A stretch of 64,000 bases of DNA from Flectonema sp. DT1601 (taxonomy: Eukaryota): assembly GCA_964019425.1 (NCBI GenBank), contig OZ025781.1:1178001-1242000 (forward strand), written 5' to 3'. The first letter of the stretch is position 1, and each line of letters begins with the position of its first letter. Below, in pieces: positions 581-56,227 of this stretch. Below the pieces are notes generated by a model. The model saw nothing but the letters and a program-made list of their open reading frames with translations, searched no databases and had not been told where the DNA came from. The position numbers were made by a program, and so were the translations under genes.

Positions 581-3500
581 TTAAGGATTCTCAAAAAAAG
601 ATAAGAAGCTAATCTTCTTTTTATTCTTTTTATTCTTTTCGTCAACTCCGCAGAGTCGCTTTGATCCATTCCTCAAATCAACTATTTTAATGCTGCTATC
701 ATCAGAGATTCCAAAGTGGCTGAATACATCATTTCTAGGAAGCTTGGCCCTTGGACTATACTGGGCATCAATTTTATTAGTGAGTTGTGGGATAGGAAGA
801 GGTTTTCGAATGGATCCAAAAACAGCTTTTTTCGAGACAGTTGGTTGCGACTGCACTTCCACTTCTTTTATACAAGGTTTTGATTCAAACAGTATTATTT
901 GACGGAGGTGTTCACGTCTGGAAATGGCAATCTTTTTAGAACTGTCTGTGACTGTGAATAAAATTTTACTTCTCTCAGGTACCTCTACCGTCAACAGGTC
1001 CTCAAAGTATCCCAACATATACTTTCCCGGAATTGTGGGAGCTGTAAATCTGTTGTCACAAAGAAAACCTTTTCCAGATTTTATTAGCCATCCTTTATAA
1101 AGACTAATATAATCAACGCGTGGGTCTTTGCTACCAAGTCGGAATACAGCAAGATAAGCCTGTTCTCTTCTGGTTAAATGATTACACAAGGACCATTTAA
1201 CAAGAAGTCGTTCACCTGGTTGGATGCCCTGGGGGTTTAGGAGAGTTATTTGAGCAGCCTTCTCAATCGTTTTTGAGATATCCTTCTTCGACATCTCAAA
1301 GTTGTGATACTTTCGAGTCAGAAGGTTGACTCTGGTGGTTTCTTTCACTTCAGTTCCGTGGTCAGAGTTCGCGGTGTGGATTCCCGATCCCATTTTTGTT
1401 AATTTCAGACTTTCTACATCACCTAAACTATCAAGGGTATCTCGACGTTGACGAGGTTCTTCTAATATAAAACGAAGAGATCGAGTGTCTGAAATACTCG
1501 ATTTCAACGCTGCAATCTTAACCTTGACACCCCGAAGTTTTGTGTCGTAGTATGCTGATTGCTGCGATGTTCCCCAAACCTTTTGTGTTTGGGTTGTTTT
1601 GTTTATCCAATAAAAATTACAAAAAAGTAACATTTTCATACCTTCGCCAAGAAAGTGGTGGCTTCCAACGTCTCAAGTCTTTCGAGCAGTTTCATTAGGG
1701 TTTCATTGAAAACAGATTCCTCACCGTCATTTATACTTTCCCAGAAAGATAAAAGTATTGCTTTACAACTCACAGAGAAATCTAAAGAGTTCACGGGGTC
1801 AGCTACTTCCTTACTGAGAACTCTCGCAATCCCACTTTTTAGTTCCCAAATAGCTTCCCTAATAACGGATTTAGAGCGACACGTTATAGTCTTCTTCACT
1901 ACTTGTACCTGTTGAGGACCAGGTGCTTCTTGAGAGAGGATACACGCTACAGGTCTGAGATCAATATTTTCAGCACCAGAAAGTATCAAATGAAGCTCTT
2001 CTTGAGCACGTTTACCTGAAGTGAGTGTTGGAGACGTATTCTTTTTTGCAAACAAAGAAGTCTCTCGTATTACAGAAAAACATACCAGCCTGGAAGAGTA
2101 AGTTTCTTCGATCTTCCGATCCTTCAGGTAATCCGCTGGCTAGCTTTAGTTGAAGTTGGACGAGGGGTCGAAGAGTGCAAACATAAAGAGCGCTGTGAGA
2201 TGTCGCATGTGATCTGATAGCTTCAAGTACTTGACAATATATTAAAGAACAGTCTTCAAGGTTCAATTCATCACAAGCTTTTTGAATAAAAACTAAAGCA
2301 GTAAGAGCTGGACGAAGACTACATTCCGGCCAATGCGACAGCTTTGCAGTAGAATTTCGAGGAACCGCCGCAAGAGTTTCCTTCAACCAGTCTAAGTGAA
2401 GCAGAGCTGCTGAATAATGTTCATCTTGCTCAACAGCAAGAATTCCGAATTTCACTACTTCACAACAGAGAATTGTACTCGCATGTGGTAACACTTCTCT
2501 TAGTAAAGGAAATACTGCTACAAGCATTTTAGCATCCTTTCTGTAAAAGCAAAGTTGCCACAGAATTCGAATGTACTCAGGGTGTCTGATTGAGGCTTCT
2601 TTTTCAACAACTTCGAGAGCGTTTATATAAAAACAATCCGACTGCTCTAAATCTGACATTAAATCAGCAACGTCTGACAGCAACTCTCCGAGTTGTAAAT
2701 TTAAAGCTGATCGAAGTGATATTGATTTGTTATAAAGTTCTATTGAAGATTCAACTTGTAATCTGTTCTTCATCGCAACCTCTGCGCTGACTCGTGCTGC
2801 TGCAGTTAGTACTTCGTGGTAGGGATGTGCTCTGTTTGTTTGTTTGTTTGTTTGTTTGTTTGTTTGTTTGTTTGTTTGTTTGTTTGTTTGTTTGTTTGTT
2901 TGTTTGTTTGTTTGTTTGTTTGTTTGTTTGTTTGTTTGTTTGTTTGTTTGTTTGTTTGTTTGTTTGTTTGTTTGTTTGTTTGTTTGTTTGTTTGTTTGTT
3001 TGTTTGTTTGTTTGTTTGTTTGTTTGTTTGTTTGTTTGTTTGTTTGTTTGTTTGTTTGTTTGTTTGTTTGTTTGTTTGTTTGTTTGTTTGTTTGTTTGTT
3101 TGTTTGTTTGTTTGTTTGTTTGTTTGTTTGTTTGTTTGTTTGTTTGTTTGTTTGTTTGTTTGTTTGTTTGTTTGTTTGTTTGTTTGTTTGTTTGTTTGTT
3201 TGTTTGTTTGTTTGTTTGTTTGTTTGTTTGTTTGTTTGTTTGTTTGTTTGTTTGTTTGTTTGTTTGTTTGTTTGTTTGTTTGTTTGTTTGTTTGTTTGTT
3301 TGTTTGTTTGTTTGTTTGTTTGTTTGTTTGTTTGTTTGTTTGTTTGTTTGTTTGTTTGTTTGTTTGTTTGTTTGTTTGTTTGTTTGTTTGTTTGTTTGTT
3401 TGTTTGTTTGTTTGTTTGTTTGTTTGTTTGTTTGTTTGTTTGTTTGTTTGTTTGTTTGTTTGTTTGTTTGTTTGTTTGTTTGTTTGTTTGTTTGTTTGTT

Positions 3501-6500
3501 TGTTTGTTTGTTTGTTTGTTTGTTTGTTTGTTTGTTTGTTTGTTTGTTTGTTTGTTTGTTTGTTTGTTTGTTTGTTTGTTTGTTTGTTTGTTTGTTCGTC
3601 ACATACCGAATTCCGAATTCCTCTTCCATCCGAATGATGGCGAGTCTAACAAGTTCATCAGCATCTCTGCTGCTTTCTGGTCGGATGAGGTCTGCTAATA
3701 AAAGAGAGTCTCTCATCCACTGTAATGGATTGTTGTGACTACATTCATTCTGACTACGAAGTTCAATAACTCTCCTGAGAACTCCAACAGCCAACAACCA
3801 GTCGGACGAGTGAATGTGAATTTGAATCATCGCATCTTGAAGAGGTAACATTTTAGATGCGTGATCCTTATCTACTCCAAGAACAGGTCTCAAACTTGGC
3901 ATTAACTTCGTTCGACGAGATGACATCGCCAACTGACAAGCTTGGATATCTCCTTCCATAATATATTTGATGCATGGAGGGTAGCTCACTGGTGTGAGTG
4001 TTTTTATTTTAGAAGCGACTGTACAGGACACTCCGAGGTTAGTTGAAGTGTCTTTAAATAATCGAAGTCTCAATAAGAAAACTGTTCTCTTCCTTAACAA
4101 GAATTGATCAATTTCCCCATTTGGTAAACACGCTGGGAAGTATTCAGCTGCTAATACTTCTTTTCCCTTCAACGGTATCTGAGGGACTTCAGGATCAAGT
4201 TGCTTCACAGCATCATTGTAACGAGTGATATGGAACAGGTCTCTTCTCGTAAAAGGAACTGCCGCAAATTTAGTTCGTAGCTTTTCTGCGATTGGACCCG
4301 CCCAGAGTCTACCGTCACTGTTGTCCAGTTGAGTGAGTCCTGTGAAGTGTTGTGTTGAATTATAGCAGAAGTTAGGTTTATGGTCCAAACATGAAAAAGA
4401 AATCCTTCTTCGGACCACCCTGGATTATAATCGTCAGAACTGACTATAATTTAATAAAAACAAATAAGAAGAAGCATTCGAAGACCAGCACATGCGACGG
4501 ATAACTTGATTCGTGACTTGTATTCGAAGTGGCTTCTGGCAGCCTGCAATACCAATCAAGTCAATTACATCGGTATTGGGAAATGCTGAAAGATGGAATA
4601 CCTTAAGTGAGGATCCGATGTCGACAATTACACCATGGAAATAAGTATTAATAAGGTTATATAACCACCTTATTTGCGGAAATGTTCAGGTTTTTGCCTT
4701 CTTTTATTCATCACCAACGCTTCTTTCAACAGCAGCTTCTTCGAGCAACTACTACGAATGTTTTAGACAGTGTGAGATAGAAGCATTTACTCAGAATGTG
4801 AACAGAATGTATCGAAGAGAAGTGAAATTTGTAAGTTTGCCGAAATTTAGAATGACCTGTTACACACGGAGGTAGTGTCGGAAGCGCATCATCATCACAG
4901 CGTGTGGGTTTCCCCTGCCCCTGAAGATTAGGAACTCACTCATGAAACAGCTGCCGAAAGCTAATAGGCGGCGAGATACAACAACAGAAATAATACAAAC
5001 CTGCACCAAGAAACGTTCCTAACAGCTGTACTGATATAGCAGCGATGTTCTGCCTCGTACACATATCACATGATAATTGTTGTAAACGATCTCGAACATG
5101 TGATTTTAGGCAACGCGCTGCCATCTCCACGCGAACCAAATCCGAAGCCGCGCGCAGCGTTTTAATCGGAAATCTGATTTTTTCTTCTCTTAACTGTTCG
5201 CTAGTTGAATACTTCGTGTGAGTGGATGGCCACAGTCCGTTGTTTTGTTCAGCAACTTGAATGATTTTTGCAATGAGACCGAGGGAGCTGTAATTTACTC
5301 CATTCTCATGTAAGAATGAACAGAGACCAGAGCTTGAGAACATTCTTATATTATTAAGTGATTGTGAGAGCCATTCCTTTATTAATCCAGGGATTCCAAT
5401 AAGGTAGTGATGAGTAACCGAGTGGACAAGTTCTTCAGAGCGAATCTCTGCTTCAGTACTGTTGTTCCAAGGAGTGCAAGAAGTGCTGCTTAAAGGAGCT
5501 TCAGTAGTCTTCCAAAGATATTCAGGTCGAAGTCTTTCAAGTAAGAAAGTAATACCATCACCATCAGGACCTCGGGGTGAGTTCATTTTAGAAAGTTGAA
5601 ATACCACTTCGTGGATATGATCTTCAGTGGCTTCATTACCGTCAGTGAACGATTCAATATCAGAGTGCATTGACCAAGGGAATAGAGATGCTGCATGACG
5701 TAGGTACAGCCTCCCATCTTTTGGACTAACGTGCGTCTCGATATCTAAACAACTTCCTAAACTGTCAGAAGAGAAGAATGAAGTTCGAATTCCGAGTCTT
5801 TCGCATAATAGTTTACAAGTCAGTCGATGTTCTTCTCTCTTACAAACCTGGTCAGGTGGTGGTCTTGATTTGTGAATAGGAGCGCAGTCGTCTTTGTATC
5901 CTCCGCATTGAAGTGTTTTGGAACTCAACCCCAAATCACACTCAATATATAAACAATACGATCCGTGATATGCGACACAGCAAAGTGGAACATAAATTCC
6001 AACTACACCAGTCGCAATGACTGCCCTGAGAGAGGATAGGTCGAGTGATGTTACTTTTCTTGCTTGTTCCCAACCTCCAAAACATTTTTTTCGATCATTC
6101 GTATCCACAACGTGAAATATCAAACCATCCAGAGAGACGACTCCCTCTCTTTCAGTTTTGATCGATTCCTTGCTGACGGATAATTCTAAGTCGTGAATCG
6201 CGATGGGGATTCTCAATTCCACGAAATCAGAAAAGTCGTCGCAGACTCGAGCAACCCATTCCGTCCATACAACGTAGTCATGGTGTTTTAATCTGTTGTT
6301 TTTTTTTTTTTTTTTTTTTTTCAATAGTGTTTTTAATATCAAAAGTTTCATTAGCTTAGCGATAGCATACCGTTGATGTCCACAAGCTTTTTGAAAAGCC
6401 TCATTAAATATTGAAGCATGAACTACCTCAGAAGGATCCCACTTGAGAGCTGGGTGTGGGAGGTTTATTAAATTGGTTTCTAATTGTTCTGTCATTTCAT

Positions 6501-6693: not shown

Positions 6694-6855
6694 TTTGGGA
6701 CACCATTCAACCTGTTGAGAAAGATTATTTCAATTTTTCTGGTTCAAAAAAAAAAAAAACCTTTTTAATAATTTATCAAATCATCTGTTGAATCTATTTA
6801 TCTATTTTTTTATTATTGAATACAATTAGTGAGATGGCAGTAGAGGGGAAGGAAT

Positions 6856-8139: not shown

Positions 8140-8366
8140 TGTGTGTAGCGAGCTATTAGATAAAATAAATTTATAACAACTACGGCGCTCTGAAAGATTA
8201 TCTCCCTCTTCGATGTTGTAATTGTGATGAGTTTCATCCTGAAGAGAGAAACAGAATTGAGTGATATTTTCAAACACATTGCCATAAAAAACTACAATAA
8301 GAAAAACCAGATTTAAAATCGAACGGGTAGAGGACAAAGAACAAAAGGAATGGGAGTTGTCGTTCT

Positions 8367-8397
<31 letters not shown>

Positions 8398-8587: not shown

Positions 8588-8895
8588 GAGCTTTTTAAAA
8601 AAAAAATAAATAAAAAAAAATATATTCCCCTTTCAAAAGAAGAAGGAAAAATTCGTCTGTAGTTTCAGACGATTTCATTACCAATATCACCATCATTGGG
8701 TTATTAGTATAGAGGATCATTACCTCCTGCTTGAAACTCCCCCTCCGTTGGGCTCCTTTCGCAAGAATTGGTTAATTTTTTTTAATATTTTCTATTTTTC
8801 GTGTTACGAACCGCAAAGCCGGTTTATTTATTTTATCGAAACCGAATTCAAGCAGAAAAAAGCTCTCGGGGGTGGGGTATCCATCATTTTTCATC

Positions 8896-9028
8896 AAAAT
8901 ACAAATGTATTGTATCATAAACAACATAACGATATTTTAACATTAGTTCTGAGATACAGTGACTAAAGGTAATGTTAGTGTAGGTATACACTCTGCGATT
9001 GACGTAAATACTTTACATTATAATAAAT
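8896..9028. repeat. Dispersed repeat family 1, copy A
   Basis: Near-identical to 23670-23802, and its left part recurs at 9087-9157. Confidence 0.85.
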
Positions 9029-9050
9029 GTTTCTAACTTAGCTGCAGTAC

Positions 9051-9167
9051 CTAACTCGGGGGGGTTAACTGTTCGAGTTTGTACGTAAAATACAAATGTT
9101 TTGTATCATAAACAACATAACGATAATTTAACATTAGTTCTGAGATACAGTGACTAACTCGGGGGGG
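9051..9167 (-). mobile_element. Short element family 1, copy B, with 14-bp direct repeats (TSD-like)
   Basis: CTAACTCGGGGGGG at 9051-9064 and 9154-9167 flanks a body starting TTAACTGTTCGAG that is shared with copy C. Confidence 0.75.
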
Positions 9168-10571: not shown

Positions 10572-10606
<35 letters not shown>

Positions 10607-10635: not shown

Positions 10636-10761
10636 CCATTCAGATAAGCGGCCTTGTTTTTTTGTTGATCACCAGACAGTATTACTGACGCATGTGGAAA
10701 TAGATAACATGACATAATAAATAAACGGCTCTTAATCTGAATAGTTTCTTCTCCGACTTCG
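10636..10761. repeat. Dispersed repeat family 3 with imperfect inverted ends, copy 1
   Basis: Second copy at 23231-23357. The last 66 nt are identical (10696-10761 = 23292-23357). ATTCAGATAAG and CTTAATCTGAAT can pair. Confidence 0.8.
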
Positions 10762-14972: not shown

Positions 14973-15863
14973 TGTTATATTCTTATTATTATTTTTTTTT
15001 TTTTTTTGACCCCCAAAAAAAAAAAAAAAAAAAAAAAAAAACTCAACCGAAAAAAAGATATCCTGGGGAGGTAGAAAGATCATTATTGTTTTGAAAATAA
15101 CCAAAAGTACTTCGTTGAACTCGTTGAGTAAATATCCTTATGAGTACCTGTAAAAAAGAAAAAAAAAAAAAAAACTTATCAAAAGATTAACCAAATTCGA
15201 TTCTACATTATTCTCTTACGGTTCGTGAACAAATGTTTGTGTTTTTTTTTCCCTGATATTTTTTTGGGGCCAGGGACATTTCGCAAAAAAAAAAAAAAAA
15301 AAAAAAAAGAGAATTCAACAACGTCACCTAGACAGATGACATTCTTTTTGAAACGAATCGGAGTTTAATACTCATCTAAAGGATATCAAACCCAGTCATG
15401 ATAACCTAATATTCAACGTTCTGTGGATACTTGATGGATGTCTTTGCCTGAAAACTTTCAGACGGGTCAACGCCGAGACAACATGTTGGAACAACACGCG
15501 CTAATAGAAGTATCATTCACACACAACATAATAACATCGAGAGAGAGTCACCCAGAAACAGGATACACACTTCCCTTTCTCTGATGTAAATTGGTATCAT
15601 TAGTAGCTGATTGTTACATCATAAAAGGTGGATAAACAAAACAAAAAAAAAAAAGAATTTCTCCATTGCAGGAGTTTCACACAAATAAGAATAATAATAG
15701 AAACGGACAAAATACGATTGATTTTCGTATCTGGATATTCCAGACTTTAAAACAGGGGCAGCCTCTTTAGAAAAGAAGACTCTCATAAAAAATGAAACTC
15801 GTTTTGAGATTCGTGAAGGAGTAGAAAAGAAACCAAAACAATAATAAACGCTTAAGAACGCAC

Positions 15864-16439: not shown

Positions 16440-18581
16440 TCAAACATCCTTCAAGTTCATTACAGTAAAACCTTCACCGTAATTTAAAGACCAGTCAAAG
16501 TTTGAATTATTATTCTCAGATCCGAATGCTTTTAACATCTTTAATTCCTCTTCTCTGTTTCTGAGATGATCTTCTGAAGGCTTCGGAAGGTCAGAGATGG
16601 TTAGATATGGTGATCCTTGACCAAATATTTGTCTGGTTGGTTTATATAAAAATGATGATATAGTTCTGAATGTTAGTGAAATTCGAGCACCACTTTCAAT
16701 TGTTTGATGTGATGGTCGATTTTTTGATTGAAGACTACGTTTATCTGGTCTGATTCCGTGAACTAATCTCCTATTGCTCTCCCATCCTAAAACGAATATT
16801 GAATTGTCCGGGAGCTCAATGAGTTGTTTGCTTCGATGGTTTGAAGGAACATCTTTTTTCGATGATAAAGTCATCGTTCGAGAAGCACCAAAACTAACAT
16901 TAATGATTTCAGATCCTTTCTTTATGTCTAATGTTTTATCGGCGTGAGGTGAGATGTTGTCTTCACCTGTTCTGTATTTTTGAATTAGGACGTGATTTAA
17001 AGTTGATTTCGTAACTTTTTCAACTTCTTGTTTTATTCTAAACACCAGAGGAGACCAGGAACTCTGTTTTGGTTGTGCATCGGCTGGGTGTCTGTAGCAG
17101 GGTTCCGTTCGAAGACCATCATCAACGTCGCCCTGAACGGATACTAGTCTTGGTACCTCTCCTCCTCTGTGTTCCATCGTTTGCCAACAAACATCTGAAT
17201 TTAGTTTTGAAAAAAAGTCGCTTTGATCGTACGGTTCTTTCATGCAACGACCATAGAGCATGCAGTCTCCAATTCCTAAATCCGTGAGTGGTTTTGGATT
17301 TGAATATAATCCAATTTCATCATACATTTCTCGAGTCCAGTTGGTGTTGGTTTCACACAAATGTCGTTTTATAAAAATTATTTCATCAGTTTTTTGATTA
17401 CTATTAATAACCCTCACTAATCTCTTCCAAACTGACATCGGTCCAGTCTTCCACTCCGGAGGAGTTGATTTCTTAACAGACAGATTCGTCTGTTGAACTA
17501 TCCAATACAAGTTTAATTTTCTTAAACAAAAAATATTCGATAACGGAAATCCCTTGTAAACCACAAATGAAAGACTTGCCACTAGCAGCATGTCAGAAGG
17601 TGATAGAGGTAGATTTGATTCAACAATGTCGTCTAATACTAATAATGTCTTTATCAGGTCATGTACCTTTGTGACAACAACATCATCATCTTTAACTCTA
17701 AACACAGAAATCAGTTCAAATAAATGTCTTATTAATTTAACATTTTCAGATTCAGATTTCAATATTAGTTTCAGCAATGAATCACCACAGTAATCTAGTG
17801 AGTTGTGAGTTAAAACCACGTGTTCTAAGATATCATCATCTTTGTTTTTTTTTGTTTTTTTCTTCGATTCATCGAGTTCGTCCTCACCACTCACAGTCTG
17901 ACAGCAATCTCCAACCCTGTCACTGTATTGAAAAGAATGGTTATTCTCAATCAGGAACATCGAAGTTGCAAATGTCAACACATCAGCCTTGTTAGTAACA
18001 ACATGAGATGATGGCGATGGGAGATTTGTTATCAATTTGTAGGTTTCTAACATGGTTATATCAGGCTGGTCGTTCCATGACGACAATATTTTTTGACATG
18101 AACTTTGCGAAGATACCCTCGCAGAGACACAATCAACGGGAACTATGATGTGAGCACAACAGGATCGCAAGTCCTTGATAGTTGATTGAACACATGCTGG
18201 AATGGTTGCCCCTGCAATCACTACCGTCTTATTATAAAAAAAGTTTCTAAGTTTTTGAATATCATCTTCAGTCGTTTGATCAAAAATACTATTACCATTC
18301 TTATACAGGATACGATGTTCTTTTACATCTATCGTTGAAAGTTCAATCTTCTGTCCTAAAGAGGTTGAACAGATGCCGGGTACATTCTTAAATTGGGTAT
18401 TTTGATATTTTGATGATACCAAAACAATTTCACATCCACTCAGCTCATTGATCATCGCAGAGACAACTTTAGCAGAATTTCGGATTGGTTGCGTGTCTTC
18501 TTCGCCAAACACTTGAGCAAACACGCCTTCCAGATTAATGAAATCATGTACCATGTCAATGACTACCACAGTAAGAGACAT
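16440..18581 (-). CDS. Isochorismatase-like (cysteine hydrolase) + AlkB-type 2OG-Fe(II) dioxygenase fusion protein
   Basis: Start MSLTVVVIDM at 18581. Triad-like IDMVHDF / YKNGNS / ACVQST. AlkB-type YRTGEDNISPHADKTLDI, LVHGI and RISLTFR. Confidence 0.85.
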   Translation of the reverse strand: MSLTVVVIDMVHDFINLEGVFAQVFGEEDTQPIRNSAKVVSAMINELSGCEIVLVSSKYQNTQFKNVPGICSTSLGQKIELSTIDVKEHRILYKNGNSIFDQTTEDDIQKLRNFFYNKTVVIAGATIPACVQSTIKDLRSCCAHIIVPVDCVSARVSSQSSCQKILSSWNDQPDITMLETYKLITNLPSPSSHVVTNKADVLTFATSMFLIENNHSFQYSDRVGDCCQTVSGEDELDESKKKTKKNKDDDILEHVVLTHNSLDYCGDSLLKLILKSESENVKLIRHLFELISVFRVKDDDVVVTKVHDLIKTLLVLDDIVESNLPLSPSDMLLVASLSFVVYKGFPLSNIFCLRKLNLYWIVQQTNLSVKKSTPPEWKTGPMSVWKRLVRVINSNQKTDEIIFIKRHLCETNTNWTREMYDEIGLYSNPKPLTDLGIGDCMLYGRCMKEPYDQSDFFSKLNSDVCWQTMEHRGGEVPRLVSVQGDVDDGLRTEPCYRHPADAQPKQSSWSPLVFRIKQEVEKVTKSTLNHVLIQKYRTGEDNISPHADKTLDIKKGSEIINVSFGASRTMTLSSKKDVPSNHRSKQLIELPDNSIFVLGWESNRRLVHGIRPDKRSLQSKNRPSHQTIESGARISLTFRTISSFLYKPTRQIFGQGSPYLTISDLPKPSEDHLRNREEELKMLKAFGSENNNSNFDWSLNYGEGFTVMNLKDV

Positions 18582-19238
18582 CTTGTTGTTATTTATGAGA
18601 AGGGTCTGGGTATGGACCTGGAAAACTAAAAGAGGTTGCATTAACGAAGATTATTTAAGCCAGTCAATTATTCCGTGACGAATGCACTTTTGTTATAAAT
18701 TCACGAACAAAAAGTGTCAAGTTTTTAATTCGTGTTCCCCTTAGATACAAGACCATAGTGTGGTAGTACTGTCTGTTTAAAGAAGTGTTGGATTCATTTT
18801 TATTACGGTTTCAATTCGGTAACACGTCTGTCCCGTGCTAGTAAAGAAGAAGAAGAAGAAGAAGAAGAAGAGCAAAATATTCACCCCTTACGTGAAATTT
18901 CTTGTTGTTTTTTTTTTTTTTTTTTTTTTTAAAAAAACTCTCTCTCTCTCTTTCGGGGTGGGAATATACGTCAACAAACCTGATTGCTTATTTTTTTTTT
19001 AGTTTCGTTCGCTGAGATTTTTTTTTTTTTTTTTCTTCTATGAAAAAAAAAAAAGAGAAAAAAGAGAAAAAAAAACGAGCACATGGTATTCATCCATTGT
19101 CTACAGAAAACAATTCCTTTTATTCACTTTGTGTTTTTTTTTAATTGTTATATTTTTCGGTTTTTTTTTTTTTTTTTTTTTTTTTTTATGCGTACTTGAC
19201 TTCTTTGGATTTCAGAGGACAACAAAGGACAAGTAGCT

Positions 19239-23230: not shown

Positions 23231-23357
23231 CCATTCAGATAAGCAGCCTTATTATATTTTGTTGATCGCAGCTAGTTTTACTGGCGCACAGGGAAATAGA
23301 TAACATGACATAATAAATAAACGGCTCTTAATCTGAATAGTTTCTTCTCCGACTTCG
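23231..23357. repeat. Dispersed repeat family 3, copy 2
   Basis: Matches 10636-10761. Confidence 0.8.
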
Positions 23358-23635: not shown

Positions 23636-23813
23636 TCTTTCAGGGGGTTAACTGTTCGAGTTTGTACGTAAAATACAAATGTTTTGTATCATAGACAACA
23701 TAACGATAATTTAACATTAGTTCTGAGATACAGTGACTAAAGGTAATGTTAGTGTAGGTATACACTCTGCGATTGACGTAAATACTTTACATTATAATAA
23801 ATCTTTCAGGGGG
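23636..23813 (-). mobile_element. Short element family 1, copy C, with 12-bp TSD
   Basis: TCTTTCAGGGGG at 23636-23647 and 23802-23813 flanks a 154-bp body. Confidence 0.8.
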
Positions 23814-36656: not shown

Positions 36657-37363
36657 GTGTGTGTGTTTTTTTTGTTTTTTTCAGAAACAGAAAAAGAAAG
36701 GCCCTAGATCGTTGGAATTATTATTATTATTTTATTACAGCACCAATAACTGTTGTAAGTTTTCAAACCAAAAAAACAACATCCGAACAACTTATCAGAA
36801 AATGGGTAAATTGAGTTCTTTTGTATGCTGAAGTAGGGGCCATCACCGGTACCTCGTTTGGCGACAATGTTATCGGAACCTTATAAAATACCGAAAATAC
36901 AACACAATTTTTCCATTCCCCCCCGACCCCCTACCTGAATGAGGAAAAATAAAAAAAAGGTATAATAATAAAAAATAAACACAAAGAAAAACCAATGCAC
37001 AACCTATTCTTCTTTGCACAAAAAAAATATTAAATACAGAAAATTATCATAGGTGTTTTTTTCAAACAACAAAGCCATGGTGGTAATGAAAAAAAGGCTA
37101 ATCTAATTTAGACGCCGTACCGTCAGAAACGCGTCTTTTTTTTTTTTTTTTTTTATGTGAAAGGAAATTTTTTGTTTTTTTGTTTTTTTTTAAGAACGAA
37201 TTTTTGTAAACCAAATTTTAAAAAAAAAAAAAAAACTTAAAGAAAAGATATAAATAATAAAAGGAGGTTTACTGCAAAAAAAAAAAATGTTATTTAAGAA
37301 AAAAAAAACAAAAATAAATAAATAACAATAATAATAATAATAATAAATGAGAATTTTTTTTTC

Positions 37364-40300
37364 TTATGTCTTAAGACCTAATATACACGCAACACCTCTC
37401 TTTATCCAATGCGACTCCTCACACGAGATTGGTATCTCAAGAGTCAACACAAAGTTAGTAGAGTGTCCAGTCGTGGATAAGGTTCCAGCCCTGGCAAGAG
37501 TTTTGTACAAAGGACACTTATAACGTGATTCTGGAGGGACTCGATCTTGAACAGGTTGAAACCAAATTTCCGGAAATGAAGTAAACAACTCTTTTGGTCG
37601 AGACTCGATTAACGCAGAAGTAATTTTATCCCAACGAGCTCCTTCAACAAATAATCCATCGACGTAGACTCCGTGTTCAGGTTTCTTTGTCGGCCTCTCT
37701 GCCAACGGTATGGTATTAAAAGTAATCGTATCGATCGATACTTTCTGAGATCTCGCATAATTCTGTTTCGTCCCGGTAATGAAGGCTTGAGGGAAGTAGA
37801 ATCCAGATAACCAAAACACGCTCGGAATCCCCTTCTCATACCAGTCCTGTTTGGAGGGTTGTTTTTTTTTTTTTTTTTAATCATAACAAAAGTTCCCTCA
37901 CAGTATACAGTAAGTAAACCACGCACCTGTATAAATCTTACTCGTTGGAGGAGATCGACAACCCAGGCAGAGAGAGATTTCAGAGATGGATAAGCGACTA
38001 CGGACCATTTTACAGGTACCTGTTGGTTTGTTTTATTATGTTTTGTTTTTTTAAAGAAGAAACAAAAATAAAAAATTAAAAAAAAAAAACCAAACCTGAT
38101 TCATAAAAATGGAATTTCCCATCTCTTCCAAATCGGCTGCCATAACGACCTCTCCACGAAGAGCTCTGGTAAAGTCTTTTAGTGACTTTGCTGCAACTCG
38201 AAGTAGTTTGTTAAATCTGACAGCTTCCTGAACAAGAACTGTATTCATCGATTCATTGTATAGGACTGGGTACTTTTCTTGAAATCCTCTGAGATCGAAT
38301 TCAGGAGGAGTCTTTGAAAGAATATCCGTAGCAGTTTCCATTAAAATATCTTCACGTCGTTTACCTCCAACTGATGAGCCCCCTGTTTCCATTGACAAGA
38401 CTGTGTCTAACAGTAGAAATGAAGTCATTCTCGCTGATGTAATGTCCGCGTTGTCATGTAATCCGAACGTCTCAGGGGCTGCGTTGATCGGTCTGCTTTC
38501 TAAGTAATCCAAATAATAAGACCTATTACCCGATGGTAATGTTGAATACACTCCGCTAGGTGAGAATCTATAATCCAATTCCAATACTTTAGGTGACATA
38601 TAATCGTCTAAAAGTGTTGTTAAACAACGTCGATCCCAATCATCAGTCACCCGACCTCCGTAATTAACTTGTCCAGTAAGGAAGTGAAGAACGGGGAATG
38701 GAACTTCTTCATACATGTCGATAAACTTATGAAGTTGGCGATTACAACACTTCAAGTCGCTGTCATTAAACTCATAAGGGATGTTGAACCCAAGAGATCC
38801 ATAACCACGACGGTCTTGAATAACAGCGTGGAACAACCCCAATGAGAATAAAAGTCTTTTGAACTCTTCTGTTTTTGAACTACTGTCTAGCCACTCATCA
38901 GTGAATCCTGTGTATGATCTCGTGAGGTTGGCTCGAAGACCTTTCGGAGGTTCATTAGTCATTTTAACACCAATCTGCAATACCGAAACTGGAAAAGTCT
39001 TACTTGGCATACTTGTCAACCAAAGTCTAAATTCTCTCTTCATGGTGTCAGGGTTGAAATTTTCAATTACAGTTTCTAACTTTGGCATCCATGATGTTGC
39101 CAAGTGACAATTTTGCAATACCACCCAAGTACCTCTATCGATACCACCTGTTATTAATGCTTGAGCACGAGGACCTTGACCCTGACCAAGTGATATTGGA
39201 TGCATTTTACTTTGCATTCTCATCTTAGCTGCGAACTTTTGTAATTCATCCATAGGATCTGCTCCAGTTGAAAGAATAAAGATTAATGGTGTTGCTGGAT
39301 CAGAGTCTTTGTAAGAACTTTCTAAATCGAAGGTTGGAGCGATTATGAATTTTTCTGGTAAATATGTCGTGACGTATCTTTGAATTGCTAAAATGATCTT
39401 GTCAGCACGTAGAACTCTCACTAAAACAAGACGAAGGAATGGAGTGACCTTACTGTCCCAGTCGGGATGCATGGGTTCAAGGTGAGGCTCAAGAGAATCA
39501 AAGACTTTCTTGTAATGTTTGTGATGTAGTGAAAAGTGATCAGCAAATCCTTTACAACTTGTGAGATTACTATCAATGAATTGAATATCATCCCACGTTG
39601 CTTCTGTTAACCAATCTGGAGAAGGATTGATAAGAGAACCAGAACCCGTTGAACCTGTTAGTAAGAAACGATATTCAAGAGGATCAACCTTCCCTTCAGG
39701 TTTTATAATTGAAACACACAGACAGAATGAAAACATTAATTTATGTCTTTCGAATAACGATCTGCAAACATTCGTATAAAATGAGAAAGTGAAATATTCA
39801 ATCAAATTGCTCAACCTGATATCTAAATCGCTATCTTGTTCTGCCTTATCAATTGATGATATAAATAAATTTAAAAACCATTGTAAGCTGTACTGATACA
39901 TCGGATCTACAGATGCTAATGACGCAACACAAAAGAACAGCAGAGCAGCTCTAAACGCAACCGGTCTGTATCTATTTCTTGTTTCATCAATAACCTTTTC
40001 AGTCTCTTGAGCTTCTGCTACTGCTAAGTTGATTTCTTTTGATTTTACTTTACTTTTTTCAAGTGTTTCAATCAGTTCTTCGTTGTCTAAAATTTCTCCT
40101 TCACACTCCTGTAGCATCCGTAAGATGAGTGCCTGTAAGGAAGTCAATTCTTTCAGCATCGCAGCATTTTGTCTTGTTAAGCTGTTCTTCTGATCTTCTA
40201 AATCTTTTCTTTCCTTTCCAACTAACTTTCCTAAAAGTTGATCTTCAAGACCACCTGGAGTAATGTAAAAGTTTAGAAGCGAAACTTTAACGCTGGTTTC

Positions 40301-43300: not shown

Positions 43301-46300
43301 GTCAATAACTTCGTTATATTTAATTGGAGGAAGATAGTTATAAAACCCAGCGTGGTCTAAAAACTGCCTCAACAATTCAATTGGTGGTTGGGCTCCATAC
43401 TGTTCCTTGATTGGCATGTTGGCGTCATCAACGAATATTACGAAGGTCTTTCCAATTGAAGGCCCCCATGTAGTCGACTCAATTCCGTTTCTACGTTTTT
43501 CAACTTTTCCCATCAACGTATTCTGACATTGGTTACTATGAGTCTGAGCACTGAATGATAAAAAGATACCACTGTACTTCTCTGGAAGTCCTCCCATGAT
43601 CAGACTCTGAATGCCAACAGTTTTACCTGTTCCTGTTGGTCCAGCAGCAATCAAGTTCGATCCCCCCTTGATTAATAATTTACACAGAAAATTTGATCTG
43701 ATCGTGTCTTTAGTTCGGACAATGAGATCTCCGAATTTCGCTTTTGGATCGATCGTTACTTGAGGTTCAGTTGAAAGCCAATGTTTCCATCCTAACTCCT
43801 TGTCTTCATCCCATTCGTAATAAAGATCATACAAAGTGATTTGTGAACCTTCGTATTCAGTCGGTATTTGAGATAGTAGAGCCTCGTCATTCTCTGATAA
43901 CATTTTAGTTAAAAACTCTGAAAACTTAACTCTACCTTCACTGTTACAAGATCCACCAATTGACCAAACAATCGACAACAAGAAGTATGGCTTAATGGTT
44001 AATTCAACAGCCTGTATTATTTCATCACTCGGTTCGAGTCCCCCACAGAGAGCAACAAATTGAGAAATGAACCCATCCATGACACGGAATGCGGAGTCCA
44101 CAAGATTATTATCAACTGTAGGAACGTATTCAACACAATTTAATCTGATAAAGTCGATACACTTTGAGTAGTAGATGATGGATCTTTCTTCCAATAAAGT
44201 TGCGTATTTTGAGTACAGAGGAGGAAGCCTTTGAACCCATGACTTTATTCTATCAGCAGTCGGTGTACAAGACTGCGGTTCCATATAAATCATTCCACAT
44301 CGAGATACCGTAGCAGGAGACGCCACAGCTAAGTCTTCTACCTCGAAGACCATCGTCATACATCTCGACATTTGAATAATTTCACCACTTACTAGACAGA
44401 GTTTTTTATTATCATCTAAAACAGTATTCATCGATTCGATCCAAAGAGCGTCAACTGGACCATCAAATACGACCCATTGTTTAGCACCACTCGAGTCTTT
44501 AGCTGCTCTTCTGAATAGCACGCAGAGAATACCATCGCTCCATTCGTGAGTAGTCTCATCGTAGGCTCCGTAAAGTTGATTCATAGTGATGCTCTTTGGG
44601 TTGCAAATGTGTGTTTTTACTTTTGAATATTTCTTTGTTTCCGTAGTTTGAACTTTTTGATTTGCAATTCCAATCATCGCCTGTTGAAGAACCTTGTAGT
44701 TACAAGTCTTTCCACCTCCTGCCTGACCAACCAACATGAGTCCGTGACGTAAGACAGTCACTTCATAGAGTTGAACACATTTATGAATGAATTCAGGAAC
44801 CTGTTTTGGTTTGTTGTTGTTTTTTTGTTTTTAATAACGTTGTCTGGTTCACGTACTTGAGTGTACTCAGCATACCTGTTGCAGTCCAAACTTTTCAATA
44901 GCGCTTGCAATTCCTTGCATTAAAACTCCGTAGTCAACTTGTGGTAGTTTCACTCCAGGAAACAAGTCTGAAATAATGTTTTCAAACAAAACGATATCAG
45001 CTTTTAAAAATTTTGGAACATTCGAGTCTCTAAGAGATCGAAGTAGTAATTGCGACTCGTCTTCATTTGGTAATTCTCGTTTATTAATCCCCGCAGCAGT
45101 GATGACCGTATTCACAGCTCTCATTCCAAAATCGTAGTGGTCCTGGGTACTCAACTGTTCACTTGACAATTGAAAAGTTTGGTTCATTTTCTTACTCAGA
45201 GGACGTGCATTTCGATATCCGTATGAAAACAGTCTTATCTCACCAATTAAAGCATAGTCGGGAACCATGCATGCGACAGGTCTGAATAAAACCTTTAAAT
45301 TATCAGGTAACTCTGTTCTACCAGCGTATCCTGGATTCATTGTAATGAAGACAGCATGAGTTGGATCGACTACAATTTCAGATCCCTCGAATTCTATTCG
45401 GTATTGTTGTCGTTTTAAAGCTTCCTGGAGGTCGCTTACCTGTTTGATTTGTTTTGTTTTTGTTTTGTTTTTTTTAAAGAGAGAAAGGCACAAGTGGCTG
45501 AACATACCTGTTGGGCAACAACTGAAAGCACTTCAACATCAATTCTGTTAAATTCATCAAAACAAGCCCAGGCTCCAGTCATTGCCAATCCTTTAAAGAA
45601 CTTTCCCATTGCTCTGAAATCAAGACCTTCCTGACAATTAAATACAACGCATTGCTTCGCAAGTGCTTTTGCTAAATCTTTTGTTGTTTCGGTTTTACCA
45701 GTTCCGGCTGGACCTGCAGGAGCACCACCAAGACACAATGCAAGAGCTCCAGTCAGCGTTAAGTAAATTCTGTCTGTTAAAGGAGTAACTACTAATCTCA
45801 TGGTATTTCCGAGGTATTCACCTCCGTAGATAAATTCAGCATCGACTTGTCTGATTTTACATCTTTCATCAGAAGTGTCGTAGTAGTATCGAAGTTGTTT
45901 AATCCAATCAAAACTTGTGATTGAATCTGTTTTACTTGACAACATATTAAAACAAGTATCCTTAGCATGAACTTCTATAGTGATGAGTGCTCCCATGTTG
46001 ACACGTTGTCTTCTATCTAATGGTGACTGAACTACTTCAACTAATTCCAGTAGTTGGAGTTCACTCTTTTTAGCGTACTTCTCAAGACCAAGGATCCCTT
46101 CGTTGTTTAACGCTTCTTCAATTTCAAGAGTCCAATAGATCTGAGCAGCTGCGATGACGATTTGACCAGCGTGGTCAAGAACCCATTTTCTTCTTTCAGT
46201 TTCTACGTATGTAGTGTTAGCGATTGTTACTGCCTGGTGTAATCCAAGTTTCATTCCAAGTTCAATTTCACCCAACCAGACTTCAACATTGTTCAGTGGG

Positions 46301-49300: not shown

Positions 49301-50243
49301 CTGTCCTCCGCTGGCAATGATCTAATTTGTGTTCCCAAACGTGTTATTACTTCCAGGAGAGATGATTTTATTTTTGGTAGCTCATCCGTTGGCATTGAAT
49401 CGCAGCAGAGTTTGTATCTGATTAGATTAGTTTATTATGAGAGTCTTCGGTATCACACTTTACAGTCTACTATTTGTTAAACAAGAAATAAATTTCATAC
49501 CGTAGCCATTCAAGTGCTTGATTTCTCTGTTTTGAAGCCTTCACAAGTCTTTGAGTGTAGGGAGTTGGGTCTTCTGATAAAAAGTTAACAAGTAGTCGAG
49601 GAAGCCATGATGATTCTTCAATTTCAGAAGGTTTAGCACCCCAAAGAATTCGAAGTTTATTCGATTCTTTATTCCAATCAACAACTCTGCAGTAGTCAAA
49701 GGTCCACTGACTAGTCGTCTTGTCTTTATGAAGTGCTTTAGCTGGTAGGTAGAAATGAGTTTCTGGAGCATTATCAGGAACTCCATCATGTGCTAAACTC
49801 ATCCACTCATCAGCAGTGCGAGGATCAAATGAAGTATCGTCAAAGATCTCAAGTGGGAGAGTGAGACCTTCCCGAGTCCCAATCTCGTTGAGAGAGAGAC
49901 CAGCAATTTGACAAAGCCTTTCAATGTCTTGTGCTTCGTATTGTCGACGTTTTCTTTCCATCTCAATCTTTCGTGGAACTCTACCCCTAACATGTTCATA
50001 TGGTAGCAGTACTTTGGGTTCTAATGCCCTCGGAGGTAAATTGTCATAAAGTTTGTGGTGGGGAACACCAGAAGCCCTCGCAATCAAAGCGCCATCACCA
50101 GGATCGGTATGAGATCTCGGGGACTCGACAACTTCGTCTTCTTCTTCTTCCAATATAACTTGCGGAGGAGGTGTTTTTTGACTGCTTACCTTCGGTTTAG
50201 CTTTTGGCCTGAGTGTGCTTCTCAGCTTTCCGTTATTTCCCAT
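37364..50243 (-). CDS. DNAH1: Axonemal inner-arm dynein heavy chain, DNAH1-like; 6 exons
   Basis: P-loops [33 protein letters not shown]-terminal HWIKRGVA; N-terminal [13 protein letters not shown] and LPLEIFDD, which I recall as DNAH1-like (subtype less certain than family). Introns 49418-49500, 45440-45507, 44801-44875, 38020-38095, 37847-37926. Confidence 0.9.
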
Positions 50244-51349
50244 TCGTCAGCCCTGACTGCGACTCTCGGCGCAGACAGAACTTCCCCAATGTCCACCACT
50301 GTAATAAGAAACTGAATTAAGTGATTGAAATGAAGAAAGAAAGACAGAAAACGCAACAGACGTGACATAAGCGATAACTCATAAGTCAGTCAGTAGAATG
50401 CTCAGCACCTATTAAACACACCGAAGGGTTCTTTAATATCATTCTCTCGTATCTACATATCCCAACTCTGGAAGGGGGATAAAGAATTGTGAGGGTAATT
50501 ACTGAACAGAAGAGAAAAATAAATAGAAAGAGAAAGAAAAAAAAATATAAATAAAAAAAAATAAAAAATGAAATCAAAATTTAAAAACAATAAGCTACAG
50601 GCATATCTAAATTGAAATGAAAAAAAAAAAAAAGTACATATAAAAAAACCCCCTTCAGACACAGACGATTCTCAACATTATTGCAGCGGATAAATCCTAT
50701 GCGAGTGTTTCTTTTTTTGGATTATTAAAAATTTATGTTTTTTTTTTTTTTTTTTTCTGATGATGAGGTCACAGTTAAGTAACCAACCATCAATTAATAT
50801 ATAAATATAACCATAGAAGGAAAATTTTTTATTAAATCGGTTTTTTTTAGTGAGAAAAAAAAAAAAAAAAAAAAAAAAAAAAGGTACAAAAAAAATTAAA
50901 TAAAGAAGGAAAGAGGAGCACTCTATTCTCACTAGTTCCCCTTATAAATTTGTAATGCTAAAAAAAAAAACAAAAAGAAAACTCTGTGCTGTTTTCTGTC
51001 CAACAGTTTTGTTTATTTTTCTCCTCCGAGTATGAATATGGTTAAGTGAGTTTTCTGCCCTCCCCCAGAATACTGATTCCACGACTACTAGTAGGAGGAG
51101 GAGGAGGAAAAATAAAATAAAATAAATAAATCTATTTGGGGAAAAAAAAAAAAAAAAATTAAAAATTAAAAAACAATACGAACTAAAAATAAATTTAACA
51201 AAAATAAGACACCTTTTCCTTTCATTTTTTTTTTTTTTTTCTTTCTTTCTCAAGGAGCCCCACAGCTAATGGCGCCGTACAGAAACAAATACAAATTCCA
51301 CCACCTTTTAGTAATCAAGGGGTTGTGATAAAACACATGTCAACTTTTA

Positions 51350-54300
51350 TTAATATGTTTGTCCAGGAAGTTCACTTACGTGACATCTGTTTTAGTTTGT
51401 TTGGTTTTTTTTTTTATTCTTCCAAAAAAAAAAAATATTTTCGTTGTATACATACTTTGAACCATCAGGAAGCAATACCAATCCATCAGAAGTAGGTACC
51501 CAGTCAGGATGACTTGGGTTAAGAGGTGACTTACTGTTGAATGGTGAATAACGATTCGTGATTAACTTGTAGGGATTACTTTGAACGTTGCGAGACATCT
51601 TTTTAAGCCGTTTTACCATATCTAAGGAGTGAGCTGCTGAAGGGTTTGCTTTAACCGTTTTTGGATCTGATGGATTGTAATTTGGTGATCGAGAACGGGT
51701 TCTGTGATTGCTACTCGCACTTCTCACAGACCTTCCAGGTAGAGTCGTACTGTATAAATGACCAGCTTGAGGTGCCCCAGCCATTGAAACTCTACTAAAG
51801 GTGGGAACACTAAAAGAACTATCGCTATTAGTAACAACAGCACCTGATTGTTTACTACTAAACTTATCTCTTGAACGTGGTGCTAACTGTTTAGCTGATG
51901 GAACTGAAGAACAGAATATTTCTTGATCAAATTGGCGTTTAACTCTCTTATTCATTTCTCTTTCACTACTATAGAGTACCTTAGCCTCATCAATATTATC
52001 TTGGACTCTTTGAAGATGAAGCCATTTTCGATATTCTTCAGCAACTTGTTCGTCTTCTTCAAGTCGTTTATCTTCAACAACACGAGCCCATAGAAGTTGA
52101 GCTCTGTGACGCTGTTCTTGATGTTGTTGTTCTGCTATGCGGAATCTTTGTTCATCTTCTAATCGCTCTCTCTGAAGTTGTCTTTGTTGCATTACATTAA
52201 AGTCTTCTTTTAGAACGTCTAATACTCTCAGTAGGTGTTCTTGTTCTTTTCGTTCTGTTTGAATTCTGTATCCCTCTTCAGCCATTTTAAAGTCACTTTG
52301 TTCCAAAGCGTCTCTCATTGGTCTGTCACGATGCCACTTGTCGTGAAGACCGTGTAGATCTTTTCTTTTTAAGTCTCCTAAGTGATGCATTTGATCGAGT
52401 TCTAATTTTCTAACTGCTAACCTGCTTCGCTCTTCTTCTCTAACGAGGTCTTGAAGCATTAGAGCTCCCTCGAGTAGTGATTCTTTTCGGAGTTCGTATT
52501 CTGTTCTCTTGGCGTATATTTGAGATAACAATGAACGACACGCTGACTGAATCATCGCAACTTTTTTATTGCTGCGAAGGATTGCAGTTATCCAACGAGA
52601 TCGTCGCAGATGAGCGAATTTCTGAACCAAAACAGCATGATGATTTAAAGCTCTGGTTCTGGCTTCTTCAACTACTGACCACGATTCTGATTTTAGAAAT
52701 ACTTTTGTTCTTCCAACCTGACCGAGAGTTGAATTTATATTAAGTTTCGACAACACAGTAGCAGCAGTCTTTGCGTGATCACCCGGCGTTGCGTCATTGC
52801 CAGCTATTGCTCTGTATCTGGTTATGAATTCAGTGAATGAAAGTCTCACTGAATATCCCATTTTTCTTATTCTAACAGTCTCTAAGACACCAGCTGAACG
52901 GAGTTGGTTCATTACTTCTTGTCCAGAAAACTTTCTCGGTTTCTTACTGTGATGTGGTTTCACACATCGAATCCAATGCGGGTTCGTTGCATTTATAACC
53001 GACATTAACTCTTGGAGTTGTGTTTTATAAAGACGAGATACTGTTGGTTTTCTACCGATGATTTCAACAGGTGGAGGAATGACTTCTCCAACAAATTGAT
53101 CAGCACTTCCTCTTATGATTCTCTTAATTGAGTCTTTTAGAGTATCCATATTCTTTTCTCTCCATCCATCGACGTTATACATGACAGTCGATGCGTAGTG
53201 TCGAATTCCGAATGCAGACTGGTCAATTCTGTGTTTGACATAAGAAGGATGGGATCCTTGAGCCTCTGCTAACTTACTAGCAAATGACAGGTCAGATCCT
53301 TTTCCAAGTTGAACCTCTTCGTCGAGGAGAGATAAAACACCGAGAGTCGACGTGATCAAATCAAGAGTCGGAGCATTGTCGCTAAAAATAATACTTTGAG
53401 TATTAATACCTTCGTCTTTACATTCTTGCAAGTCTTTCGTAAATATAAAATTGTTGTAGTGATTTTGCAACTGTTCATTCGTTAAATTAATACACATCTG
53501 TTCAAAACTGTTATGTTCAAAGTGCTCAAATCCAAAAATGTCCAATAAACCAATCCAGTTCGATTCCGACGAAGCGTCAATTAAACTGTTAATTTTTCCG
53601 ACTAACCACAAAAAGATATTTTCATATAAAGTTTTACACATCGATGCTTTTTGTTCAGTTGCCTTGACTAGATCTAAAGAAGTAGTAAAGGTGTCGGCAG
53701 CGACAGTTCTTGTTGTAGTTGTAAGTTCAGTATAGAGTCGATTTGGATTTATTTTTAATAAATGAGTTCCAACGAACTCAAGAAGTTCCTTATCAGAATC
53801 GGATAGACAAGCTCTTCCATCCTTCTCTCTAAATGACATATTTGTTATGTGAAGAACAGCTGCTAATATGTTATACAAAGAATCTTGTTCAGACTTACTG
53901 ATACCGACTGTCGTCATTGCATTTCTAGTGTTTAAATATTCTTCAGCATCGTTGACACCTTCAATTGTAACAGCTTTACCAGAGCTGAGTGATTTATAGT
54001 CTGTGACTCTACCGAGTCTCATTCTGATTCTGTCTTCTGCACTGGCTCCTTGAACTAATTGATAAAAAGAATGATATCCACGTTCACCTTGACTGTGTGA
54101 AATAACTCTACTCTTCTCAAGCAAGTAGGGTGTTATATGAGCTCCAACTAGTACTCCTTCGGAATTAAATCTTAATTTCATGTATTTACCAAATCTCGAT
54201 GAGTTGTCATTTCGTGTAGTTTTTGCATTTCCAAAGGTTTCTAAAATCGGAGATGTTTTATTCACTTTTAGGTTTATCTGTCTCGCAATTTCACGTTGTT

Positions 54301-54859: not shown

Positions 54860-55457
54860 TTTTTTTTTTACTTTTTCCTAAAAGAAAAAAAATGATGTTT
54901 TTTTTTGGGGGGAAAAAAAAAAAAACAAAGCATTTTTTAAAAAAAACACATCGATAGCACAACAATACTCTAAAAGGAATTTAAATCTAAAGAGGAAAAA
55001 AATCAAACTCTAAAAGTAAACAGAGAAAAAAAAAACTATTCTAGACAGTATACAGGAACAAACAGAATAGAATCGTTTCAGCTATTCCACTAACAGCAAC
55101 TTACAACAGCAAAGAAAGCCTTCACCTGTTTTTTTTTTTTTCAATTTAGTCAGAGAATTAATAGCATAAATGAAATTATGCAGTTTCTCTCATTCTCTTT
55201 TTTTTAAAGCATACCTTGAGAGTTTCTCTAAATTACGAAATTGTGTCAGCGGCGAATTCTTATGAACATTTCTGTTTTTGTTGTTGTTGGTTCGATGAAT
55301 TGATAAAAAAAAATAAGAGCGACAACCAAAAGACGATCAATACCGACAGCATTAGGTTCTCAGACGCAAATGTAAATACGTCGTCGTTCCGAGTGGACTC
55401 AAAAAAGAAAAACCTCTATTAAAGATTCAGATTGAAATAACACGAAAACATACATAC

Positions 55458-55800: not shown

Positions 55801-56227
55801 CTGTTTGTTATTAACTTTAATAGGGATTCTCTTAAAAAGTTAAAAGATTGGTGAAATGAAGTTGTATCTAAATTCTAAGAAGAATAACAGAGGTTTTTCG
55901 CGTTTAAGAAAAACGAGTTGCACACTTCTTGGTAATCAGAATAGCCCAAATTTCCTTGCACATGAGATACCCATTCCGCATCGAGATAATACACTCGGGA
56001 TACCAAGTCACATAAGATACCAGTTAGGACAATGAGAGGTAGATGGAATACTCTCGAAACCTAAAAAAGTAATTAAAGTCCGAACCTGATGTTTTATGTT
56101 GAATTGGTAGTGTAATCTCATCTTTCTGCTCTTGTATATGTGTTGTCAACTAAGTGATCCTCAGTTAGGACTGAAAAAGGAAGATCTTCGACAGAAACAG
56201 GAATTAATAATTAACTAATTTACAAGA

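Follow-up and report, generated by a model that had tools for sequence, protein, structure and literature searches.

How one spliceosome chooses between joining exons in cis and adding a spliced leader in trans is an old question, and it poses itself most acutely where polycistronic transcription is combined with many introns. The 64-kb stretch of contig OZ025781.1 analysed here (hereafter the window) carries a one-directional array of 11 host genes on the minus strand, with 19 GT-AG introns in the same orientation. A previous sequence-only reading of this DNA had proposed that two opposite 3' splice-site codes coexist in the window, an A/C-rich one at cis acceptors and a polypyrimidine one at leader acceptors, and had guessed that the host is a diplonemid. 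Using the 64 kb of DNA (one window, 10 gene starts) together with homologous proteins, we found that the short cis introns are polar, being U-rich near the 5' donor and A/C-rich and G-free in their last 30 nt. Leader acceptors, as predicted from the DNA upstream of the gene starts, probably differ from these cis acceptors.

The diplonemid guess was borne out. The best matches of the dynein heavy chain were transcript-derived proteins of Diplonema japonicum (78% identity) and D. ambulator (77% identity), with kinetoplastids at about 50%, and a second gene had hits in D. papillatum, Namystynia and Artemidia. Judged by these protein matches, the source is therefore a diplonemid, of a species distinct from both D. 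japonicum and D. ambulator.

Cis introns end in an A/C-rich, G-free tract

Each coordinate of the sequence-only reading, cis and trans alike, proved to be the last base of a minus-strand AG with the flank as quoted. To its 12 cis acceptors seven were added (49418, 37847, 36398, 32174, 30555, 55272 and 55126), giving a total of 19. An open reading frame (ORF) at 16166–15864 that is not established as a gene, the AG at 55801 and the retroelement were excluded from all counts. Also excluded were the introns 55457–54804, 29102–28908, 15867–15782 and 15715–14860 predicted by a blind gene model, which were judged spurious or mis-joined, as well as 181–118. The blind model uses a strand-symmetric non-coding background and does not score the bases that precede the AG. 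It recovered 12 of the 19 final acceptors exactly, chose another in-frame AG for five (45440, 30273, 36398, 2832 and 1580) and missed 55272 and 55126; for 45440 and 30273, homologue alignment decides for the A/C-rich site over the AG of the blind model. All 19 introns have GT-AG ends and their excision restores the protein, as judged independently from homologues or Pfam for eight and from the reading frame alone for 11. The five dynein junctions align without gaps to three transcript-derived homologues (P0002, P0003 and P0006), two junctions of the gene at 34852–29099 align to relatives, and at one Tim17 junction Pfam position 74 is followed directly by position 75. The introns, listed by gene, are as follows.

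49418–49500, minus strand: dynein intron 1, 83 nt; A/U-rich end with CTAAT-like motifs, a partial exception; gap-free homologue alignment.
45440–45507, minus strand: dynein intron 2, 68 nt; A/C-rich acceptor; gap-free homologue alignment.
44801–44875, minus strand: dynein intron 3, 75 nt; A/C-rich acceptor; gap-free homologue alignment.
38020–38095, minus strand: dynein intron 4, 76 nt; U-rich 5' half, A/C-rich acceptor; gap-free homologue alignment.
37847–37926, minus strand: dynein intron 5, 80 nt; A/C-rich acceptor, newly added; gap-free homologue alignment.
51387–51455, minus strand: last myosin intron, 69 nt; A/C-rich acceptor; frame and blind gene model.
55272–55457, minus strand: probable intron of the small gene 55765–55122, 186 nt; A/C-rich acceptor; frame only, uncertain.
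55126–55214, minus strand: probable intron of the same small gene, 89 nt; A-run acceptor; frame only, uncertain.
36398–36499, minus strand: Tim17-family intron 1, 102 nt; A/C-rich acceptor; frame, with the AG of the blind model 12 nt downstream and in frame.
36177–36244, minus strand: Tim17-family intron 2, 68 nt; A/C-rich acceptor; Pfam Tim17 segments 34–74 and 75–110 meet at the junction.
32937–33000, minus strand: intron 1 of gene 34852–29099, 64 nt; A/C-rich; frame, blind model and rough colinearity with P0126.
32174–32474, minus strand: intron 2 of gene 34852–29099, 301 nt; acceptor A-run formed by the tail of a 120-nt A-tailed dispersed repeat; frame and blind model.
30555–30626, minus strand: intron 3 of gene 34852–29099, 72 nt; A/C-rich, two upstream CAGs skipped; alignment to P0124 and P0125.
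30273–30342, minus strand: intron 4 of gene 34852–29099, 70 nt; A-run followed by a C-rich acceptor; alignment to P0124, P0125 and P0126.
6293–6370, minus strand: intron 1 of the CLU-domain gene, 78 nt; A-run acceptor; frame and blind model, with Pfam CLU in the next exon.
4340–5000, minus strand: intron 2 of the CLU-domain gene, up to 661 nt; A/C-rich with some U; frame and blind model, donor uncertain and a further exon possible.
2832–3606, minus strand: intron 3 of the CLU-domain gene, 775 nt; nearly all CAAA, 191 copies; frame, tandem array.
2016–2085, minus strand: intron 4 of the CLU-domain gene, 70 nt; C/U-rich acceptor, the clearest exception (score −5.3); frame and blind model.
1580–1641, minus strand: intron 5 of the CLU-domain gene, 62 nt; A/C-rich with an AAG acceptor; frame only, with an in-frame CAG of the blind model 18 nt downstream.

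At positions −20 to −4, the 19 acceptors have a composition of A 0.64, C 0.24, G 0.015 and T 0.10, so that the pyrimidine tract expected of U2-type introns between branch and AG was not present. The claim that cis acceptors mostly lack a U-rich tract thus turned out to be stronger than originally put, the 12 sites on which it was built averaging A 0.64, C 0.26, G 0.01 and T 0.10. Eighteen of the 19 end in CAG, 17 have A at −4, and none of the 228 bases at −15 to −4 is a G. When scored for composition in a leave-one-out fashion, 17 of 19 cis acceptors reached a score of at least 0, compared with 9 of 177 CAGs in intergenic sense DNA, 34 of 223 on the antisense strand and 15 of 454 in coding sequence; likewise, a G-free tract with at most two T precedes 16 of 19 cis acceptors and 6 of 177 intergenic CAGs. 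The exceptions named by the sequence-only reading (2016, 4340 and 30273) held up in part, with 2016 the clearest and 4340 and 30273, together with 30555, weakly scoring; 49418 (T 0.35) had been overlooked.

The donors follow the consensus G|GTWTG (G at −1 in 18/19, T at +4 in 18/19 and G at +5 in 19/19). In the 15 short introns T amounts to 0.46 at +7 to +30 versus 0.11 at −20 to −4, A reaches 0.66–0.68 over the last 30 nt, and the longest pyrimidine tract has a median start at +9 and a median end 45 nt before the intron end; the sequence-only reading had not remarked on this polarity. A candidate branch motif of the YTRAY type occurs in the last 50 nt of 5 of 19 introns. A fixed branch hexamer at a set distance from the AG, as in Trichomonas or Giardia, was not found among the 19 introns (CTRAC in 2/19, no fixed T column).

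Several side observations concern the introns themselves. The tetranucleotide array at 2833–3596 (191 perfect copies) fills its intron from 9 nt past the donor to the acceptor. The 120-nt A-tailed dispersed repeat is present at 32177–32292 (minus strand), where its tail is the intron acceptor tract, and at 26011–26129 (plus strand), the copies being 90% identical. The relatives P0124 and P0125, each encoded on one long contig, cover the junctions of 30626–30555 and 30342–30273, which hints that these two introns are absent there.

AGs upstream of gene starts differ from cis acceptors

All diplonemid mRNAs are described as carrying the leader (PMC10161547, available text). Were the leader added at acceptors with the cis signal, each ATG would be expected to have a cis-like AG upstream. 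The five AGs put forward earlier as trans acceptors are indeed U-rich (T 0.65), but they had been chosen for their tracts within U-rich intergenic DNA, covered only 5 of the 10 starts, and are in three cases (8239, 15148 and 34890) separated from the main start by another ATG. Two tests were performed in which no AG was chosen by its tract. In the first, which used the 150 nt upstream of each of the 10 ATGs, the most cis-like AG of each start scored below the cis set, with p = 0.003 for any AG (10 genes), p = 6 × 10−5 for YAG (9 genes) and p = 4 × 10−5 for CAG (8 genes), so that the dissimilarity claimed for start-proximal AGs persists when circularity is removed. The same comparison against the eight independently backed acceptors alone gave p = 0.034 for any AG and p = 8 × 10−5 for CAG. 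No CAG with a cis-like score of at least 0 was found within 150 nt of the 10 ATGs, eight of which have a CAG there. In the second test, pyrimidine tracts near the ATGs were compared with the intergenic background and exceeded it only marginally (p = 0.049–0.21 over six settings). Separately, picks made by fixed rules (nearest AG, YAG or CAG) were each T-richer than cis acceptors (p ≤ 0.0015). Because no cis-type CAG lies within 150 nt of the 10 starts, the predicted leader acceptors probably differ from the cis acceptors. That they follow a polypyrimidine code is no more than plausible. T peaks at 0.41–0.48 in the zone 26–75 nt before the ATGs, intergenic sense DNA having T 0.39 and A 0.30. 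Separate from this U-rich zone, the 1–25 nt before the 10 start codons are A-rich (0.46).

The candidate acceptors at the 10 starts, predicted from the DNA sequence, are listed below. Four starts missing from the earlier reading (dynein, nucleotidyltransferase, CLU gene and ATG 302) fit a U-rich acceptor.

54878–54897, minus strand: myosin gene, candidate U-rich TAG 18 nt before the ATG.
50299–50331, minus strand: dynein gene, candidate U-rich CAGs at 50299 and 50312, 55–68 nt before the homologue-confirmed ATG; new.
36704–36770, minus strand: Tim17 gene, upstream AGs at 36704 and 36750, neither U-rich nor cis-like.
34890–34909, minus strand: candidate 37 nt before ATG 34852, with a short upstream ORF intervening.
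28944–28963, minus strand: nucleotidyltransferase gene, candidate U-rich AAG, the sole AG without an upstream ATG; new.
18618–18637, minus strand: candidate U-rich CAG 36 nt before ATG 18581.
15148–15167, minus strand: cyclase gene, previously proposed candidate 175 nt from ATG 14972, with an ATG intervening; alternative AGs at 15063 (C/U-rich) and 14982 (A-rich AAG).
8239–8258, minus strand: previously proposed candidate 99 nt before ATG 8139, with an out-of-frame ATG directly after it; alternative AG at 8153 (U/A-rich TAG).
6712–6758, minus strand: CLU gene, candidates at 6712 and 6739 before ATG 6693; new.
320–339, minus strand: candidate pyrimidine-rich AAG 17 nt before ATG 302; new.

The gene at 55765, whose start position is ambiguous, was outside the 10 tested starts. 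It is preceded by an A-rich CAG at 55801 (minus strand), which could be either the cis acceptor of a first exon or a leader site; as a leader site, it would be a decisive counter-example to a compositional difference. Cis-like A-rich CAGs also occur in intergenic DNA on the minus strand at 35079, 24830, 24839, 19012, 18980 and 11929, possibly marking introns in untranslated regions (UTRs) or unannotated exons; among these six, only 35079 and 11929 have donor-like upstream sites.

Base composition as a possible discriminator

In the reading that we favour, which we put at even chances, base composition would act as the discriminator between cis and leader acceptors, and the split would keep leader addition and the coupled polyadenylation out of gene bodies. 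The predicted leader acceptors before the starts would represent the ancestral U-rich tract followed by an AG. By analogy with trypanosomes, such a tract may recruit the trans-spliceosome and trigger cleavage about 100 nt upstream, and U-rich intron ends would therefore be expected to truncate mRNAs in a polycistronic, intron-rich genome, a fate that A/C-rich intron ends could escape. The introns of 62–102 nt may be recognised as whole units from U1 at the donor, with help from the U-tract as is the case in fungi; branch adenosines near the AG may come from the A/C tract, with no need for a tract bound by U2AF65. We suggest more tentatively, at somewhat less than even chances, that in some diplonemids two opposite 3' codes operate within one nucleus. 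Leader addition and the coupled polyadenylation would follow a U-tract code recognised by U2AF-type factors, and cis splicing an A/C code, recognised in the absence of a pyrimidine tract either by a different factor or at the branch step itself. If so, the A tails of sense-inserted retroposons and CAAA microsatellites could serve as intron acceptors, a mirror image of antisense Alu tails.

Several observations weigh against a compositional discriminator. The leader acceptors are candidates taken from the sequence of one window with 10 starts. The Tim17 start has no U-rich AG within 130 nt and misfits the pyrimidine rule, and at 6 of the 10 starts a non-CAG AG with a positive cis-like score lies within 150 nt (e.g. 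14982 and 29057). The best pyrimidine tract near the ATGs, when compared with random intergenic windows, gave p = 0.049–0.21 in a mean test under six settings and p = 0.095–0.30 in a count test, and an AG preceded by a tract of 70% pyrimidine was present in 35–55% of the 100-nt stretches drawn at random from intergenic DNA. On the cis side, 2016 and 49418 score below 0, 11 of the 19 introns are backed by the reading frame alone, and at three of these (36398, 2832 and 1580) the blind model preferred another in-frame AG. Finally, the likeness of cis and trans acceptors in Euglena and the C-rich cis tracts of P. papillatum and other diplonemids imply that a compositional split is not required for the two splicing modes to coexist.

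Alternative explanations

The alternative that survives best, though we regard it as unlikely, is that the A/C tract is a branch and 3' signal of cis splicing only and that the upstream donor decides between cis and trans, as the presence of an upstream donor does in C. elegans. Leader AGs would then be loosely specified and U-rich like the intergenic DNA around them, and the contrast between acceptor classes would be a real by-product. Consistent with this, T is high throughout intergenic sense DNA and also downstream of stop codons (0.39–0.46), tract enrichment near the ATGs is marginal and all 19 donors are strong; moreover, trans-site choice is relaxed in T. brucei (PMC2936537, available text). 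It is harder to reconcile with the T peak 26–75 nt before the ATGs, and with the lower frequency of cis-like CAGs in intergenic sense than in antisense DNA (9/177 versus 34/223), for which, however, strand skew may account. Should leader AGs be as loosely chosen as this, within U-rich DNA, the finding would reduce to the occurrence of a published intron feature in a second species.

The A/C-rich ends might instead be mutational products (slippage, microsatellites and A-tailed retroposons) that are tolerated by a spliceosome needing little beyond GT, CAG and avoidance of G. Such an origin contributes in places, as seen in acceptor 32174, which a dispersed repeat provides through its A tail, and in intron 3606–2832, a CAAA array; A and T runs are plentiful throughout the non-coding DNA. 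As a general explanation we consider it improbable: the tract keeps to the 3' end on the sense strand despite a U-rich background, the order T-run then A-run is unbiased in intergenic DNA (46 versus 38, p = 0.45), and a non-trivial dispersed repeat is present in only 1 of 19 introns.

A very improbable variant assumes one code with different spacing: the intronic U-tract would act as a distal polypyrimidine tract, the next AG downstream would be taken, as happens in kinetoplastids, and the A/C stretch would be no more than an AG-free spacer. A pyrimidine tract that ends 32–65 nt before the intron end is indeed present in most short introns, and kinetoplastid intron tracts have no fixed position (PMC11613528, available text). 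Scanning for the first AG after the tract was nevertheless rejected, since 11 of the 15 short introns skip at least one AG, in some cases a CAG, between tract and acceptor; in addition, the median tract start at +9 leaves no space for an upstream branch, and the spacer avoids both U and G.

That base pairing between the U-rich 5' and A-rich 3' halves forms an end-joining stem, as in euglenozoan non-conventional introns, is hardly credible and already largely refuted here, for although dynein intron 4 folds end to end and structured introns occur in hemistasiid diplonemids, the mean folding z was −0.5 (15 introns), most 3' tracts were predicted to be unpaired, and own 5'/3' ends gave −4.0 kcal/mol versus −4.8 kcal/mol for swapped ends (p = 0.95).

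Other features of the window

Two further classifications of the introns were rejected. Introner elements did not fit, as junction repeats, the trace of a target-site duplication, were 3.42 versus 3.42 in permuted data (p = 0.56) and matches between introns were confined to low-complexity tracts. Nor are these euglenozoan non-conventional introns, given the GT-AG ends of 19/19 and a pairing of own ends that did not exceed that of swapped ends (p = 0.95).

Searches with parts of the array gave some negative results: no homologue of the CLU-gene exon was found among longer proteins, a protein search with the last Tim17 exon returned only itself, no relative of the dynein locus was found in metagenome contigs, and Rfam gave no match. 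Further features are the following.

16440–18581, minus strand: gene for a fusion of isochorismatase and a 2OG-Fe(II) oxygenase (AlkB-like).
56430–64000, minus strand: non-LTR retrotransposon with Pfam RVT_1 and endonuclease in ORF2.
8869–9157, 23643–23807, 10673–10761 and 23269–23357: short dispersed intergenic repeats, copies 92–99% identical.

ORF2 of the retrotransposon continues in the same frame after the TGA of ORF1 and starts with what we take to be a 2A-like peptide. An identical 3' tail is found at both 56470 and 64000, which suggests head-to-tail copies.

Comparison with known systems

The closest published case is D. japonicum, in whose cis introns A is the commonest tract base and CA-rich motifs occur (Thakur et al. 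2025, PMC12621601). In the available text of that study, Lacrimia and Rhynchopus tracts show a weak A signal, and some further diplonemids have C-rich cis tracts. D. japonicum and the present species share GT-AG ends, a (G)/GTATG donor, a CAG end, an A-dominated tract with CA-rich motifs and the rarity of YTRAY (13.9% in D. japonicum, 5/19 here); the dyneins are 78% identical, and the introns here are longer, at 62–102 nt compared with a median of 41 in D. japonicum (PMC12621601, available text). The non-standard U2AF-type recognition suggested by the sequence-only reading could still apply, but in D. japonicum it would not come about through loss of U2AF, since U2AF1/2 are retained (PMC12621601, available text). 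A real compositional difference between the acceptor classes would explain the puzzling A-rich tract of D. japonicum despite its U2AF; it would also make the choice between cis and trans testable by tract swaps and improve gene prediction in diplonemid genomes. The available text of PMC12621601 contains no leader-acceptor analysis ('spliced leader' and 'outron' each with 0 occurrences) and no mention of a 5' U-tract. A comparison of cis and trans acceptors in diplonemids was not found in the literature, and the supplements of PMC10161547 (intron splicing, UTRs) and PMC12621601 could hold one.

Among other trans-splicing organisms, kinetoplastids resemble the present species in their polycistronic arrays, and our candidates resemble their U-rich tract followed by an AG; they differ in having only two or three cis introns, in which pyrimidine tracts are kept, and in that their leader sites are mapped and ours predicted (PMC9639853, PMC2936537 and PMC13601561, available text). 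As far as the available text goes, the U-rich tract of T. brucei directs leader addition, purines within it are harmful, any upstream A can serve as branch and polyadenylation takes place about 100 nt upstream of the tract (PMC9639853), and its U2 lacks a branch-pairing motif (PMC13601561). Euglena gracilis is likewise a euglenozoan with both splicing modes and a U-poor cis tract, but there the same C-rich tract serves introns and outrons alike, contrary to the contrast proposed here (PMC11170887, available text). In Schistosoma mansoni, trans acceptors have more U and longer tracts than cis acceptors, which is a graded difference inside one pyrimidine code, whereas the cis acceptors here are A-dominated (PMC5832876, available text).

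Outside these groups, Trichomonas vaginalis shares the GTATGT donor and an A/C-rich end without a pyrimidine tract (PMC13548475), and fungal introns share the U-tract near the donor, at 8–40 nt from it (PMC5677156); both, as described in the available text, have a fixed branch consensus, unlike the introns here, only 2/19 of which contain CTRAC. Compared with these systems, what is new here is the A/C-rich intron end in another species, its 5'-U/3'-A polarity and the apparently unpublished hypothesis of a contrast between cis and leader acceptors.

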